NCBI RefSeq assembly: GCF_000092465.1
Contig: NC_014205.1
Coordinates: 1,440,001 to 1,472,000, forward strand
DNA length: 32,000 bases
Source of the DNA: Staphylothermus hellenicus DSM 12710
GTDB lineage: Archaea; Thermoproteota; Thermoprotei_A; Sulfolobales; Desulfurococcaceae
Direction: 5' to 3'
Part shown: positions 2,176 through 26,844 of the stretch, piece after piece
How the letters are laid out: the number at the start of each line of letters is the position of its first letter
How positions within the stretch are numbered: the stretch's first letter is position 1
Notes under the pieces: generated by a model
The model's database searches: none
The model's input: only the letters and a program-made list of their open reading frames with translations
Told to the model about the DNA's origin: nothing
Translations under genes and position numbers: made by a program

Positions 2176-2664
2176 TTGAAGCTCGGAATAATAGATGAGA
2201 TATTGTTAGCAATACTAGTAGCTGGAATAGTTTTAGCACTATTCTATCTAGCACTACCACCAAACATACAAACTGGAACACTCCAATTAGAAGATGAAAT
2301 ACCTGGAACAGGCTGGAAACTAGTAGACTTATCGCCCACAGCTGGAAAAGCCTCTTTCAAAAACACAATAATGAACTATGAATACACAACATTTGTTGGT
2401 AGAAGATTCTATGCAATAACAATTGATCAAATCAAGGGATCCACTGTTAAATACAGTGTTGACATGAAATTCTACAAAAACATCTACATATATGCAGCAG
2501 CACATCTATTACTAGGAATAGGCATAGTGTTAAGCATAATAGTATTTATGCTGAGAATAGATAGGCTCAAAGAAAAACTATTAAGCCCAACACTACTAAT
2601 AACAACTGCATACATAATCATAGGACTACCACTAATATACGCACTAGTATTATCGATCTCATAA
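2176..2664 (+). CDS. hypothetical membrane protein
   Basis: 162-aa ORF with TTG start. One N-terminal and two C-terminal hydrophobic helices flank a ~70-aa soluble segment. No recognisable family. Confidence 0.4.
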   Translation: MKLGIIDEILLAILVAGIVLALFYLALPPNIQTGTLQLEDEIPGTGWKLVDLSPTAGKASFKNTIMNYEYTTFVGRRFYAITIDQIKGSTVKYSVDMKFYKNIYIYAAAHLLLGIGIVLSIIVFMLRIDRLKEKLLSPTLLITTAYIIIGLPLIYALVLSIS

Positions 2665-2734
2665 ACAATTTTTACCCTCCCCTCTCTTCTCTTAATAATT
2701 TTATTTAACAACCTGGTTCTCAAAACTATAAACC

Positions 2735-3066
2735 ATTGAGAACCGGGGAGTTCCACCCCAACGGATCAAATCGATCAAGCAAAAATCCCCCTCTATAAAA
2801 GCTAAACACAGAACTCGGAAGGGGCTAAACATGTATGGGTTCAATATCTGGGTGTGAACCCCCCGGTTTCCACCCAATAAATAAAAATCAGAACGGATGG
2901 GGGGCTAAAGACATGGTATCCGGTTCTTGTGCATATGAAACCCCCCGGTTCCTCTGTATGATTTCGCCTCCAGGATCCAGGGGCTCGTCGAGGCGAAATC
3001 ATAGAGGCTAACCCCCCGGTTATCCAATAGAACCATCTAATAGAAAACGACCAAGCCCCCTCCAAA
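2735..3066. repeat. Left block of GC-rich repeat family (four copies, mixed orientation) built around AACC-N4-GGTT cores
   Basis: Cores at 2741-2752 (AACCGGGGAGTT), 2857-2868, 2939-2950 and 3010-3021 (each AACCCCCCGGTT). Shared flanks are CGAAATCATA(C)AGAGG upstream and a C/G-string (CCCCCTC or its complement) 35-50 nt downstream. GC-rich against the AT-rich background. Confidence 0.7.
2951..3007. repeat. Long imperfect inverted repeat (hairpin/cruciform-capable) formed by two head-to-head repeat copies
   Basis: CCTCTGTATGATTTCGCCTC (2951-2970) pairs with GAGGCGAAATCATAGAGG (2990-3007) with one bulged base. The loop is 19 nt, CAGGATCCAGGGGCTCGTC. Confidence 0.8.
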
Positions 3067-3088
3067 GACCATGTTATCAATATAAAGA

Positions 3089-3115
3089 CCCCCACCCCTT
3101 GATTTCCTGTGGAGA
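3089..3115 (-). promoter_or_regulatory. ORB-like (origin recognition box) element, left
   Basis: Minus strand reads CTCCACAGGAAATCAAGGGGTGGGGG. This gives a TCCA..GGAAA dyad segment, a short spacer and a G-string, which is the layout of Orc1/Cdc6-binding ORBs recalled from Aeropyrum, Sulfolobus and Pyrococcus origins. Confidence 0.5.
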
Positions 3116-3274
3116 AAACAGCATTGGTTAATTAATGAAACTATATGGTTAGAAAACTAGCTATTTATATATGAAATTAGTTTTTAATTTTATGGTTTAA
3201 ATATATGGATCTCATTATACAAACCAATATATGTTCTCGATAATAAATAATTAGTAAGTATTATTTCCTAATTT
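3116..3274. other. AT-rich core (candidate duplex unwinding element)
   Basis: ~160 bp between the two inverted ORB-like boxes. My hand count gives roughly 20% G+C, well below the flanking sequence. No ORF. Confidence 0.5.
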
Positions 3275-3303
3275 GTTCCATATGAAATAGAGGGGGGAGG
3301 GGG
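3275..3303 (+). promoter_or_regulatory. ORB-like (origin recognition box) element, right
   Basis: Plus strand reads GTTCCATATGAAATAGAGGGGGGAGGGGG. It aligns with the reverse complement of 3089-3115 (TCCA, GAAAT, G-string). The two are inverted, with G-strings pointing away from the AT-rich core. Confidence 0.5.
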
Positions 3304-3323
3304 TTTATAAAGGGGTTTATAAA
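3299..3323 (+). promoter_or_regulatory. Tandem duplicated TATA-box module (GGGGTTTATAAA x2)
   Basis: TTTATAAA at 3304-3311 and 3316-3323, each preceded by GGGG. The first repeat copy of the right block starts ~10-25 nt downstream (3331). Confidence 0.4.
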
Positions 3324-3330
3324 GGCCTCT

Positions 3331-3518
3331 TCGAGGCGAAGCCATAGAGAGGAACCGGGGAGTTATCACTTTTCCATTGAAAACGAACACGCCGCAACCC
3401 CCCTCTCCATGGATCAGGCTCGTTGAAATGCCTGGTGGGTCCAGTCGAAATCATACAGAGGAACCGGGGGGTTCACACCCAATGCTTAACCAAAAACACC
3501 ACCAACACCCCCCTCCAC
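3331..3518 (+). repeat. Right block of the same GC-rich repeat family (two tandem copies, + orientation)
   Basis: Cores at 3353-3364 (AACCGGGGAGTT) and 3462-3473 (AACCGGGGGGTT). Segment 3446-3473 is the exact reverse complement of 2939-2966 (28 nt). Both copies end in CCCCCCTC(T)CC. Copy 1 contains the palindrome TTTTCCATTGAAAA (3370-3383). Confidence 0.7.
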
Positions 3519-3572
3519 CATAAAACAAAGAACCAAACCATTATACGAGGTCATACAAAAACAATAAAGAAT

Positions 3573-3926
3573 GGGGAGAGGGGGCGGGCCAGCTGCTCAC
3601 GCCCCCTCCTCTTGGAGGGGGTGAGGAAACTCCGCACACCCCGCGGCTCCACGGCCCCGAAATGGGGCGCGGCGAGCAGCCGCGGCTCCGGCACAGAAAC
3701 GACACGGCCACCGCTCAGATGGCGATGAGGCGGCGAGGGGTCCCCGGCAACGGGGGCTCAGCAACCCGCTGAGGACGGCGGTGGATGCGTTGAAACGGCC
3801 GGTCCCGTGGGGTGCAAGGCCCCCTGTATTATTTGAGGGGGATGAGGTTGGCCGCGCAACCCCTGTGGGGGCCGCATAGTCTAATGCAGCTAGTACAGAA
3901 TGCGGGTTATGGCCTGCCCCTCTCCT
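3573..3926 (+). ncRNA. rnpB: RNase P RNA (archaeal type A)
   Basis: GC-rich island. CR-I-like UGAGGAAACUCCG follows a P3-like hairpin GCCCCCUCCUCUUGGAGGGGG. CR-V-like GUACAGAAUGCGGGUUAUGG lies near the 3' end. P1 pairs GGAGAGGGGGCGGGCC (3575-3590) with GGCCUGCCCCUCUCC (3911-3925). P2 pairs AGCUGC with GCAGCU. P4 pairs CUCCGCA with UGCGGG. A T-run (TTTATTTTTT) follows immediately. Ends are good to about +/-5 nt. Confidence 0.88.
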
Positions 3927-4328
3927 TTATTTTTTGAGTCCTTGCCTCTTCAGTATATAGTATACTGTTGATGTTGGTAATCCTAGTTGTTTGCTTATCT
4001 TATATATGCTCATTTTTCTCCTATACATTTTAACTATTTTCTTTATGATTGCTTTCTTTTTCCTCTTATGTGTTGGCATTTTTTGTTTTTCTGTTTTCCT
4101 TAATGGTATATTGTATTTTCTCAGTATTTCGTAGAGGAGGGCTAAGTATATTTTGTGTTTCTTAACTATCTCCTTCACGGGTAATCCTTTCCTGTAATCA
4201 TTTATTATTTCCTCTATTTTCTCCTTGCTTAGATCCTCTATGTTCAAGGCATCAACACCTGCTAGGATTGTTTTCATAAATATATTATTTCTTTTCATAC
4301 TTATAAATAGATAATTGATAGTTAGCAT
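3927..4328 (-). CDS. small DNA-binding protein with two tandem HTH (resolvase/homeodomain-like) motifs
   Basis: Two internal repeats: GLPVKEIVKKHKIYLALLYEILRKYNI and MSIYKISKQLGLPTSTVYYILKRQGL. Lies downstream of tsr3, overlapping it by 7 nt if the start is 4328. Alternative starts at 4298 and 4277. The stop codon abuts the RNase P RNA 3' end. Confidence 0.5.
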   Translation of the reverse strand: MLTINYLFISMKRNNIFMKTILAGVDALNIEDLSKEKIEEIINDYRKGLPVKEIVKKHKIYLALLYEILRKYNIPLRKTEKQKMPTHKRKKKAIIKKIVKMYRRKMSIYKISKQLGLPTSTVYYILKRQGLKK

Positions 4329-4858
4329 GGAGGTTTTTCTCCCCAGTAATCCTTTATTGTTTCTAATAATTTATTAATTGATTTTGTTCTACGATATGCT
4401 TCTAATACTTCACTGTTTAATGTATGAAATGTTTTCATCCACTTGTATAGTCCAAGTAGTTTCCTATATGCTTCAATAAAACCTGTTATATATAGTGTTG
4501 CAGCTGCTGCTTCAATACTTGATAATATACATGGTTTACCATAGTTTATCGGATTACCTGGTAGGAGGGGTGGGAGCCTTCTATGTCGCCCCTTGATCAT
4601 AGAGGTTTTTCTAGGAACCAGTTTTTTCCAGCTAGCATCAACAACTACTACACCATATTTCTCCACATATACGCTATCCCATGGCCCCAAATACTTGTTG
4701 CTGTAGGGGTCAAGTATTATCGGTGAACCATGTATTCTACGTGGAAATACATGTATGGCTAGGTTTTTACGGATCATTTTTAAAGCAGTATTCTTACGGG
4801 GATCGTCTTCTCGATAATAAATAACCATTATCCTGGGCAAACGCTTCTGCTGAGCCAA
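4322..4858 (-). CDS. tsr3: 16S rRNA aminocarboxypropyltransferase Tsr3
   Basis: 178 aa. DDPRKNTA, ILDP, VVVDASW, HRRLPPLLPGNPINYGKP and LSSIEAAAATLYI match the conserved blocks of archaeal Tsr3 (DUF367). Confidence 0.8.
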   Translation of the reverse strand: MAQQKRLPRIMVIYYREDDPRKNTALKMIRKNLAIHVFPRRIHGSPIILDPYSNKYLGPWDSVYVEKYGVVVVDASWKKLVPRKTSMIKGRHRRLPPLLPGNPINYGKPCILSSIEAAAATLYITGFIEAYRKLLGLYKWMKTFHTLNSEVLEAYRRTKSINKLLETIKDYWGEKPPC

Positions 4859-6923: not shown

Positions 6924-7039
<116 letters not shown>

Positions 7040-15984: not shown

Positions 15985-16470
15985 ATGGCTAGAAGATATG
16001 TGTTATCTAAGCGTGAGCGTAGACGGTTGTTGGAGGAGTTGGAGCAGAGGTATGGTAGTATAGGTGTGGGTAAGAATGATGTTGTCGAAATATTTGAGGA
16101 GAGGAACAAGTTTAAAATACTTATCATAAATAATGTGCCAGCCTTTATATTCTACGAGGATAAATGGATTCCTCACCTAAAATACCTTCTCAGAAACCCC
16201 AACATAAAAGCTCCCATAGTAGTTGTTGATATGGGTGCTGTTAAGCCGTTGCTTAGAGGCGCTGATTTAATGGCGCCAGGTATACGTGAGATTATAGGGG
16301 TTTTTGGGAGGGGGGATGTTATAGTTGTTGTGGAGGAAAAGTATCGTAAACCCTTCGTTACAGGCATAGCTCTTGTTGATTCCAACGATATAGTTTCTGG
16401 TAAGATTAAGAAAGGTAAGGTTGTCAAGAATATTCATAGGATAGGAGATAGTTTCTGGAATATGTTATGA
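15985..16470 (+). CDS. PUA-domain RNA-binding protein (MCT-1/Tma20-like)
   Basis: C-terminal PUA signature (LLRGADLMAPGI ... GKVVKNIHRIGDSFW). ATG 15985 is preceded by GAGGTG. The ORF could start at 15970. Confidence 0.75.
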   Translation: MARRYVLSKRERRRLLEELEQRYGSIGVGKNDVVEIFEERNKFKILIINNVPAFIFYEDKWIPHLKYLLRNPNIKAPIVVVDMGAVKPLLRGADLMAPGIREIIGVFGRGDVIVVVEEKYRKPFVTGIALVDSNDIVSGKIKKGKVVKNIHRIGDSFWNML

Positions 16471-16773
16471 ATCACTATTTTTCATTGTCTCCATGTAATC
16501 CTTCGATATCATCTCTCTATATATCCCGTATCCTCCAATACTAGTTATAAATCCTGATAATCCCATCATCAACATAGCGTTTCTCTCCCCTATTAATTCC
16601 CTATATTCTTTCTCGGCAGAATCATTAATTGCCCGCACAAATATTCCTTGAGAGGATTCATAATACTCTATTCTCTGCCGCAACCCAGTGTTTATAATAA
16701 TGGTTGCAGCACAGATAACTATTCCTATAATGATCACTAGCAACAATACCTGCTTATCCGTATTTTTTCTCAA
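16465..16773 (-). CDS. hypothetical small membrane protein
   Basis: 102-aa ORF, TTG start, two hydrophobic segments. No recognisable family. Confidence 0.35.
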   Translation of the reverse strand: MRKNTDKQVLLLVIIIGIVICAATIIINTGLRQRIEYYESSQGIFVRAINDSAEKEYRELIGERNAMLMMGLSGFITSIGGYGIYREMISKDYMETMKNSDS

Positions 16774-16952
16774 GACAGATCATCTATTATTTTAAATATA
16801 TTAGCTCAACGGGTTTTTCCTTCCTTACAGATGAGTATACTATATTTTGGTATTAATATTATTAAGTAAGTTGTTCACAATATGTTTTTATAAGGTTTAA
16901 TATCCTTATTTAATGAGTCAGACAAACTATTTAGTATTAGAGGGGTTAAAAT

Positions 16953-17753
16953 ATGGGTTTCAACGAAGGAGACTTCGTACTGGTAGAGTATACAGTTCGA
17001 GTAAAAGAAACCGGTAACATAGTTGATACTACAGATGAAGCATTGGCTAAGAAGGAAAACATATATGAGTCTGGAAGAATCTATGGTCCAGCATTGATCG
17101 TTATAGGTAAGGGCTGGATCAATAAGGTTGTGGAGGATACTATTAAGGAGATGAATATTGGTGAGGAGAAAACTGTTGAGGTTCCCCCTGAGAAGGCTTT
17201 TGGACAAAGAGATCCTAGTAAGGTTAGGATTTTTAGTATGAGAGAGTTTAGGAGGAGAAACATCAAGGTTAGAGTTGGTGATGTAATAGATTTTGGCGGT
17301 GTTAAGGGGATTGTTAAGAGTATTAGTGGTGGTCGAGTAGTTGTTGATTTTAATCATCCATTAGCTGGTAAGACACTAATATATAAAGTTAAGGTTGTAG
17401 GTGAGCTGGAGGATCTAGTGGAGAAGATTAGGGCATTGGCTGTTAGGTATCTCCAAATACCCGGCGAAGAATTAGATGTTAAGTATGTGTCTGAGGAGAA
17501 GAAAGTAATAATCAGTATACCTACAAAGTATATTACTAGGAAAGATCTACAATACGCCAAGGTATCACTAGCAACAAGTATATATGAGTTCTTCAAGGAA
17601 GATGTTGATGAAGTAGTTTTCCAAGAAGAATTCAAGTTTAAGAAGGCGGAGAAGAAAGGAGAGGCGGAAGAGAAGAAGGAAGAGATGGGTGCAGAGAAAG
17701 AGAAGGCTGAGGAATCGAGCAGTCAAGAAACAGGTGAGCAGGGATCTCCATAG
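16953..17753 (+). CDS. long-type archaeal FKBP peptidyl-prolyl isomerase (with IF insert and C-terminal domain)
   Basis: GDFVLVEYTVRVKETG, the EKAFGQRDP flap/IF boundary and VVVDFNHPLAGKTLIYKVKVV are FKBP/SlyD hallmarks. Ends in a Lys/Glu-rich low-complexity tail. Confidence 0.85.
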   Translation: MGFNEGDFVLVEYTVRVKETGNIVDTTDEALAKKENIYESGRIYGPALIVIGKGWINKVVEDTIKEMNIGEEKTVEVPPEKAFGQRDPSKVRIFSMREFRRRNIKVRVGDVIDFGGVKGIVKSISGGRVVVDFNHPLAGKTLIYKVKVVGELEDLVEKIRALAVRYLQIPGEELDVKYVSEEKKVIISIPTKYITRKDLQYAKVSLATSIYEFFKEDVDEVVFQEEFKFKKAEKKGEAEEKKEEMGAEKEKAEESSSQETGEQGSP

Positions 17754-26747: not shown

Positions 26748-26844
26748 GGGCCCGTAGCCTAGCCTGGATAGGGCGCCGGCCTGCGGAGAATAGCGGGGGT
26801 TCGTGGCTAGCCGGAGGTCCCGGGTTCAAATCCCGGCGGGCCCG
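26748..26844 (+). tRNA. tRNA-Arg(GCG) with 22-nt intron at 37/38, no encoded CCA
   Basis: GGGCCCG/TA/GCCT-AGCCTGGATA-GGGC/G/CCGGC-CTGCGG[intron]A-GCCGG/AGGTC/CCGGG-TTCAAAT-CCCGG/CGGGCCC-G. Confidence 0.9.

Follow-up and report, generated by a model that had tools for sequence, protein, structure and literature searches.

Outer repeats with a palindromic core around a predicted oriC1-type replication origin of Staphylothermus hellenicus

The 32,000-nt stretch of the Staphylothermus hellenicus DSM 12710 chromosome studied here (NC_014205.1, positions 1,440,001 to 1,472,000; the window, whose coordinates are used throughout) contains six related GC-rich elements, A to F, which surround an AT-rich core within a 915-bp intergenic region (2665-3579) bounded by genes for a membrane protein and for the RNase P RNA. 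The locus raises the question of what these elements are and why the centre of their palindromic core reads as a run of G in some copies and of C in others. The initial annotation had proposed three roles: auxiliary initiator or regulator sites around an origin, structured small RNAs, or decayed miniature inverted-repeat transposable elements (MITEs). Our analysis favours the first. The six repeats are probably accessory outer origin recognition boxes (ORBs), that is, putative duplex-DNA sites of the initiator Orc1/Cdc6 with a lineage-specific palindromic extension, placed around an origin of the oriC1 type. This role is supported by the layout of the origin core and by the ORB character of the conserved block in the repeats.

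The window was scored at 63,958 positions with a position weight matrix (PWM) built from ORBs of other genera only. Against a background mean of -37.5 bits (standard deviation 10.7 bits), the two best matches were two inner ORBs in inverted orientation on either side of an AT-rich duplex-unwinding element (DUE), which contains the ucm motif (Table 1). The reference sequence TCTCCACAGGAAACGGAGGGGT, to which the left inner ORB is compared in the table, is what we take to be the ORB4 oligonucleotide of Aeropyrum pernix used in the ORC1-DNA crystal structure. Nine of the 14 best PWM matches in the 32 kb fall within 2741-3475. In Sulfolobus the order ORB-DUE(ucm)-ORB is the core architecture of oriC1, and ucm is an 11-bp motif that is essential for this origin and is bound by the protein UBP (Dhanaraju et al. 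2025, PMC12141716). From its sequence, the region is predicted to be the chromosomal replication origin, of the oriC1 type, of S. hellenicus. The cumulative GC skew across the window was uninformative on initiation.

With up to one mismatch, the 12-bp core AACCSSSSSGTT of the repeats was found at six sites (2741, 2857, 2939, 3010, 3353 and 3462), all within 2741-3473, and nowhere else in the 32 kb. Being palindromic, it gave 12 strand-hits, where about one would be expected (shuffle mean 0.99, maximum 6 in 100 shuffles), so the annotated six-copy family is real. Four elements are placed left of the DUE and two right of it. The 28-mer CGAAATCATACAGAGGAACCGGGGGGTT forms the exact reverse-complement pair that had been annotated, at 2939-2966 (minus) and 3446-3473 (plus), and related 28-mers are present at 2994-3021 and 3337-3364. 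The hairpin reported for the head-to-head copies C and D likewise exists, as an inverted repeat with arms of 32 nt (2947-2978 and 2982-3013) that are 78% complementary. The inner ORB-DUE-ORB core is bracketed by D and E as direct repeats (2987-3066 and 3331-3412), which have ATAGAAAACGACCAAGCC / ATTGAAAACGAACACGCC in common beyond the conserved unit; this mini-ORB-like half (TGAAAAC) is kept within the Staphylothermus clade.

Table 1. Features of the predicted origin region of S. hellenicus in window coordinates; ORB scores are matches at 15 positions
Feature	Sequence	Position	Strand	Remarks
Membrane-protein gene (162 aa)		2176-2664		neighbour of the origin; product 100% identical to an S. hellenicus hypothetical protein
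Element A	TCGATTTGATCCGTTGGGGTGG-AACTCCCCGGTT	2741-2774	-	ORB-like block 2753-2774, core AACTCCCCGGTT 2741-2752; points away from the DUE
Element B	GGGTGTG-AACCCCCCGGTT-TCCACCC	2850-2875	none	near-palindrome; G-string relics on both sides, dyad absent
Element C	TGGAGGCGAAATCATACAGAGG-AACCGGGGGGTT	2939-2972	-	ORB-like block 2951-2972, core 2939-2950; ORB score 9/15; points outward
Element D	TCGAGGCGAAATCATAGAGGCT-AACCCCCCGGTT	2988-3021	+	core with flipped C-run; ORB score 9/15; points toward the DUE
Inner canonical ORB, left	CTCCACAGGAAATCAAGGGGTGGGGG	3089-3114	-	top PWM match, 31.5 bits; 19/22 identical to TCTCCACAGGAAACGGAGGGGT
AT-rich DUE		3115-3275 (approx.)		holds the ucm motif
ucm motif, 11 bp	ATTATACAAAC	3214-3224		inside the DUE; ucm sequence from PMC12141716
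Inner canonical ORB, right	TTCCATATGAAATAGAGGGGGGAGGGGG	3276-3303	+	second-best PWM match, 20.2 bits
Element E	TCGAGGCGAAGCCATAGAGAGG-AACCGGGGAGTT	3331-3364	+	ORB score 10/15; points outward
Element F	TCCAGTCGAAATCATACAGAGG-AACCGGGGGGTT-CACACCC	3440-3480	+	block, core and relic CACACCC; ORB score 11/15; points outward
RNase P RNA gene		3580-3921	+	RF00373, 162 bits, E = 1.6e-46; neighbour of the origin, outside the repeat family

The corresponding locus of relatives (labelled L with a number) was recovered through the flanking proteins (L004, L007, L008) and through a pattern scan of metagenomes (L017, L020, L022, L023); further loci came from Desulfurococcus amylolyticus (L024), Thermogladius calderae (L025) and L027, L028 and L029. 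Elements were kept at the same locus across genera, in at least 11 related genomes or metagenome-assembled genomes (MAGs); they were seen in L004, L007, L008, L017, L020, L022, L023, L027 to L029, D. amylolyticus and T. calderae. All recovered loci contain the RNase P RNA, the DUE, the inner ORBs and outer elements, and the remaining intergenic DNA is unalignable between genera. The ucm motif is conserved in nearly all of them (L004, L007 in part, L008, L022 to L024 and L027 to L029); D. amylolyticus has two copies, at about 6157 and 6172. Core to core, E and F are 109 bp apart in S. hellenicus and in both L004 and L007, and 98 bp apart in L022 and L023; C and D are 71 bp apart in three genomes. 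The sequence between these cores diverges. The D-type element with its C-run is kept in L004, L007, L008, L020, L022 and L023.

Cores are concentrated at the origins, with 37 in 8.15 kb of origin DNA and four in 121 kb outside. The four outlying cores are two orthologous pairs from L022 and L023. The first pair belongs to a partial ORB plus core, TCCAGAGGATGCGATCCCGTAT-AACCCCCCGGTT, on the minus strand (L022 6372-6405, L023 11310-11343), about 3.7 kb from the origin between the genes of a PUA-domain and an FKBP protein and just upstream of a TATA-like box TTTTTATAAAG; the equivalent intergenic region of S. hellenicus (16470-16953) contains nothing like this site. The second, AACCCCCCGGTTCCAC, lies within the Tsr3 coding sequence (L022 3078-3089, L023 8062-8073), about 370 bp from the outermost origin element, and is common to both Tsr3 genes but absent from that of S. 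hellenicus.

The unit conserved across genera has 34 bp, a 22-bp ORB-like block followed by the 12-bp palindrome. Only about 34-36 nt align, so the extents of 60-90 nt first given for the copies are too long. When the 22 nt upstream of each core were scored in both orientations against TCCAnnnGAAAnnnnGGGGTGG (15 positions, about 3.75 matches expected by chance), one orientation yielded 7-15 matches and the other 1-8; element B scored 6 either way. The core begins exactly 22 nt from the T of TCCA, and this register holds in all of the 34 ORB-oriented elements from Staphylothermus-like lineages on which our core statistics are based. The outer elements of L027 and L028 are fully canonical ORBs followed by a core, such as TCCAGTGGAAATAGAGGGGTGG-CACCGGGGGGTT, TCCAGTGGAAACGGAGGGGTGG-AACCCCCCGGTG (L027) and TCCATAGGAAATAGGGGTGTGA-TACTGGGGGGTT (L028). 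The ORB dyad TCCAnnnGAAA(C/T) is recognizable in F (TCCAGTCGAAAT), C (TGGAGGCGAAAT) and, weakly, A (TCGATTTGATC), and has no counterpart in B. Elements D and E carry TCGAGGCGAA(A/G), a variant that preserves the dyad symmetry TCG/CGA. The exact dyad TCCAGTGGAAA is found in same-locus counterpart elements of L022, L023, L027 and L028. The L022 equivalent of element E reads TCCAGTGGAAACCATAGGGAAT-AACCGGGGAGTT, and the block of element F is identical at 18 of 22 positions to the D. amylolyticus block TCCAGTCGCAATCATACACCAG. Symmetry of the dyad is kept through a double change at alignment columns 3 and 7, with TCC-AGT-GGA in L022 and L023 (L022 2587-2595) and TCG-AGG-CGA in Staphylothermus (3331-3339).

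The second part of an ORB, the G-string, is canonical (GGGGTGG) in element A and in elements of L027, L028, L029 and L025. In C, D, E and F only a decayed form of it is left, AGAGG or GAGGCT, and the G-run of the core itself offers an alternative ORB-like register there (9.2-12.7 bits). From the block scores, we read the conserved 5' block of the initial annotation as an ORB with a degenerate G-string, in line with the clustering of the elements on both sides of the AT-rich unwinding element and with their conservation in related genomes. The annotation had noticed a resemblance to ORBs. It exists, but resides in this 5' block and not in the terminal C-strings to which it had been attributed; these have no dyad in the right register and, as a supposed part of the element, are kept only within the Staphylothermus clade. 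Neither is the block common to all six copies, being carried as described by C, D, E and F only. Copy A had been assigned to the plus strand. Its conserved flank is on the other side of the core, and the minus strand reads as ORB plus core (12/15 ORB positions, 4/15 on the plus strand), with the same outcome in L004 and L007. It thus becomes clear why the part of A that had passed for its variable segment is better conserved in the three-genome alignment than any other sequence left of the origin. Copy B has the block on neither side and is weakly conserved, the centre having decayed to CCAC in L007; it is probably a decayed symmetric copy.

The core has the form nAC(C/T)-GGGG or CCCC-(G/A)GTn. 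Its positions 2, 3, 10 and 11 (A, C, G and T) were invariant in the 34 elements, and the centre was GGGG in 19, CCCC in 15 and mixed in none. Positions 4 and 9 varied independently (C-G 14, T-G 12, T-A 5, C-A 3; permutation p = 0.34), with mismatches on either strand and no strand-consistent wobble pattern, which points to independent half-sites (AACY) on duplex DNA and not to an RNA helix. Three other lineages, D. amylolyticus, T. calderae and L029, keep both arms and the register of 22 nt around a mixed centre of 3 nt (TTA, ATT, GGT, GCC), and L029 has centres of 3 and 4 nt in one origin. A palindrome with an unconstrained centre, as first proposed, thus holds for the invariant arms and for the polarity, which by these sequences is free everywhere. 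It does not hold for the composition within the clade of the 34 elements, where the centre is strictly G4 or C4; the constraint to a G:C homopolymer is seen in that clade only.

How such a site would work can be outlined from solved Orc1-ORB complexes. As in these, the winged-helix domain of Orc1 would occupy the dyad and the AAA+ domain the G-string. The palindrome would then lie just past the AAA+ contact, where it might act as a symmetric contact or DNA-shape element, as the meeting point for a second, convergently bound Orc1, or as the place where a partner protein binds. A higher-order role is conceivable for the outer boxes, which may help to assemble a higher-order initiator-DNA complex for the loading of MCM at the inner ORB-DUE(ucm)-ORB core.

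The inversion of the centre in D relative to C, E and F, with flanks in the same orientation, is real. A possible source is seen on the far side of the core, where an inverted relic of a G-string (CCACCC or CACACCC) is present in many elements, among them B, F, L025 and several of L027 and L028. In D. amylolyticus such a convergent pair is still intact, TCCAGTCGCAATCATACACCAG-AAGTTTCGGTT-CTACCCCCTTGTTTCCACTGGA. We infer that the ancestral unit may have consisted of two ORBs converging on one shared palindrome; after the loss of either ORB, the survivor would see the shared G:C tract as a G-run or as a C-run. The flip may instead have arisen by inversion or gene conversion of the palindrome itself, with which the cores of E and of the L008 element X agree, as each is the exact reverse complement of the other down to the asymmetric A/T position. 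A rule by which the G-run is on the strand running away from the DUE was tried and dropped: in a hand tally of non-independent cases it fits about 14 elements and fails for about five (A, L008-X, L027-2, L028-1 and L028-8).

Several observations weigh against the reading of the repeats as outer ORBs with a palindromic extension. The arms of the palindrome are more strictly conserved than the ORB dyad, which points to a dedicated reader. Both inner ORBs are devoid of the palindrome, which is therefore no general requirement for Orc1 binding, and a monomeric Orc1 has no obvious need for one. The blocks of C and D are weak ORBs with poor PWM scores; their identity as ORBs follows mainly from the unbroken series of same-locus counterparts in relatives. 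As to the proposed ancestry of the flip, the intact convergent pair occurs in one genome only, and the L029 elements have no far-side relic. An adjacent orc1/cdc6 gene is a usual, not universal, trait of oriC1 origins, and the neighbours here are the membrane-protein and RNase P RNA genes; a Pfam scan of 30 of the 33 window open reading frames (ORFs) of at least 110 aa, the other three being nested in longer scanned ORFs, revealed no orc1/cdc6 gene or other AAA+ initiator. The involvement of Orc1 is argued wholly by analogy.

That analogy is with the crenarchaeal oriC1 ORBs, i.e. ORB1-3 of Sulfolobus and ORB1-4 of A. pernix, the sites of Orc1-1/ORC1. They show the same dyad TCCAnnnGAAA followed by a G-string, the same arrangement in multiple copies flanking an AT-rich DUE, an inverted inner pair, and ucm inside the DUE. 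The A. pernix origins are reported to be equivalent to those of the Orc1-1 type and the WhiP type in Sulfolobus (PMC10769869). By comparison, the outer boxes of S. hellenicus have the added invariant 12-bp palindrome at exactly 22 nt from the T of TCCA. In Staphylothermus these boxes have a degenerate G-string, and the origin adjoins the RNase P RNA gene instead of orc1. Haloarchaeal oriC1 ORBs have a lineage-specific extension, too, in the form of a halophile-specific extended G-string; that extension is a G-run without dyad symmetry, whereas the one described here is a palindrome with a G4/C4 centre and is restricted to the outer ORBs.

In the literature searched, which did not include two key papers on Aeropyrum origins (Grainge 2006; Robinson & Bell 2007), we found no description of the ACC-S4-GGT extension, and a full-text search for the core sequences returned unrelated primers only. 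Nor did that literature yield a description of the predicted oriC1-type origin beside the RNase P RNA gene, which is pinned down here in Staphylothermus and its relatives. The repeats are most likely elements of a known kind, ORBs, with a palindromic addition, and the key question is what reads the palindrome. Were it merely a lineage-specific extension of an ORB, it would be ordinary origin anatomy. Were it read by a second Orc1 or a new partner, the 34-bp unit would be a substrate for studying how accessory sites assemble higher-order origin complexes in archaea, a question still to be answered even for Sulfolobus, in which the new origin factor UBP came to light as late as 2025. On a more speculative reading, to which we give about one chance in four, the palindrome at its fixed 22-bp offset is a previously unrecognised architectural unit of Desulfurococcaceae origins, formed by a tail-to-tail Orc1 pair over a shared G:C tract or serving as docking site of a new protein that partners Orc1 much as UBP does ucm. 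The tail-to-tail pair, as one possibility, would be a built-in initiator site of quasi-symmetric form and would recall the inverted ORC sites that yeast needs for double-hexamer loading. In either case, the C/G flip would be a fossil record of the evolution of symmetric sites.

The alternative that survives best, although it is clearly less probable than the outer-ORB interpretation, takes the palindrome GAAC(C/T)-N3/4-(G/A)GTTC as an operator to which a DNA-binding protein of its own, probably a dimer, would bind, with the ORB as a neighbour in a composite site. Such an origin-associated nucleoid or regulatory factor would be comparable to UBP at ucm. The invariance of A2, C3, G10 and T11, tighter than that of the dyad, agrees with this proposal, as do the independent variation expected of duplex half-sites, the absence of the palindrome from the inner ORBs, its persistence in elements A and B and in relatives while the dyad decays, and the additional site of L022 and L023 that precedes a TATA-like box away from the origin. 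But the register of 22 nt to the ORB in all 34 elements is hard to explain unless ORB and palindrome work together. A centre of either 3 or 4 nt, even within L029, is awkward for a rigid dimer, and no candidate gene is consistently linked to the origin: L020 and L022 lack the helix-turn-helix gene found here at 3927-4328. A nearby AsnC-type protein was considered as the palindrome binder and rejected, being a stand-alone ligand-binding domain.

Two precedents bear on such a second protein. At oriC2 of Sulfolobus solfataricus, the winged-helix domain of a second protein, Orc1-3, binds beside the AAA+/initiator-specific motif contact of Orc1-1 (PMC3089459), and in this mORB/C3 site of the Orc1-1/Orc1-3 heterodimer the position of the second site relative to the ORB matches that of the palindrome. 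Orc1-3 and oriC2 are Sulfolobales-specific, however, and are absent from Desulfurococcales (PMC10769869), which speaks against Orc1-3 as the separate factor. The likeness meant here is one of position, and the C3 site is not known to be a palindrome. The second precedent, ucm, is likewise a short, strictly conserved non-ORB origin motif, found in Sulfolobales and Desulfurococcales, and its binding protein UBP is small, abundant and bound elsewhere in the genome as well (PMC12141716). Unlike the palindrome, which is GC-rich, symmetric, outside the DUE and locked to ORBs, ucm is asymmetric, AT-rich, located inside the DUE and bound by a monomer.

A purely structural action of the palindromes on the DNA, by cruciforms, by hairpins on unwound strands or by the shape of the G-tract, is very unlikely. 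That the centre may have 3 or 4 nt and, between lineages, any composition would suit a hairpin loop, the extended arms of B reach 9 of 11 complementary positions in a hand count, and C and D form the 32-nt inverted repeat. However, the arms usually comprise only 4-5 bp, the arm sequence itself is invariant, without a compensatory change at positions 2/11 or 3/10 in the 34 elements, and the elements are outside the DUE. The C/D hairpin is not kept in L008, L022 and L027. Reverse gyrase in hyperthermophiles, moreover, disfavours the extrusion of cruciforms.

Small structured RNA genes, the second role initially proposed, are still less probable. GC-rich islands in a genome of 36% GC would fit such genes, the TATA-like tandem of GGGGTTTATAAA stands just upstream of E, and the minus strand of E folded with z = -2.09. 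The other 11 of the 12 folds (six copies, both strands) gave z values from -0.96 to +1.74 relative to shuffled controls, the best Rfam match had E = 0.49 at a permissive threshold, and a search for terminator-like sites found none. Alifold consensus structures of the orthologous E and F sets reached only -3.3 and -4.3 kcal/mol, with no more than the 4-5 bp core hairpin, and the pair counts in the core showed neither covariation nor strand-consistent wobble. Beyond the first 36 nt or so, cross-genus conservation is zero. The elements occur in both orientations, and the TATA-like repeat is not present in L008 or L022. A stem between G-run and terminal C-string, which appeared in several minimum free energy folds, was discarded: D-type copies have a C-run at both places, and the C-strings are unconserved outside the genus.

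Decayed MITEs, or selfish repeats of another kind that built up by chance in this long stretch between genes, are the least probable reading, since the multiple copies in both orientations, the pairs resembling tandem duplicates (B/C and E/F share 3' similarity) and the differing order and orientation of elements between lineages are outweighed by the absence of copies elsewhere in the 32 kb and the presence of only four in 121 kb of related non-origin DNA, by orthologous same-locus copies in genera whose intergenic DNA is otherwise unalignable, by spacing kept to the base pair, and by the sequence around the units, in which neither terminal inverted repeats nor target-site duplications were visible.

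Around the predicted origin, gene order is rearranged between genera (L020, L022, L024, L025 and L027 to L029 compared with 2176-4858 of the window): the RNase P RNA and Tsr3 genes are together on one side in some cases and separated by the origin in others. In T. calderae an Alba gene is located between RNase P and the origin, and Alba and reverse gyrase genes flank the origin in four lineages. At the Tsr3 loci of Pyrolobus fumarii (L026) and of a MAG labelled 'Sulfolobales' (L030), there is no origin beside the gene.

Straight after the right inner ORB and just upstream of element E, GGGGTTTATAAA is repeated as an exact tandem of two copies (3300-3323), within which TTTATAAA resembles an archaeal TATA box. 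The tandem is confined to the Staphylothermus clade, being kept in L004 and L007 and not in L008 or L022; it is possibly a promoter, which was considered for transcripts of E and F, or part of an extended ORB. A second block, AACCAAACCATTATACGAGG at 3530-3551, is near-invariant in three genomes. Lying about 30 nt ahead of the point where the RNase P RNA begins, it is probably the promoter of that gene; it includes ATTATAC, the first seven bases of ucm. Elsewhere in the window, two Rfam tRNA matches of 113 nt (6927-7039, minus) and 97 nt (26748-26844, plus), both uncalled by ARAGORN, are presumably intron-containing tRNA genes.

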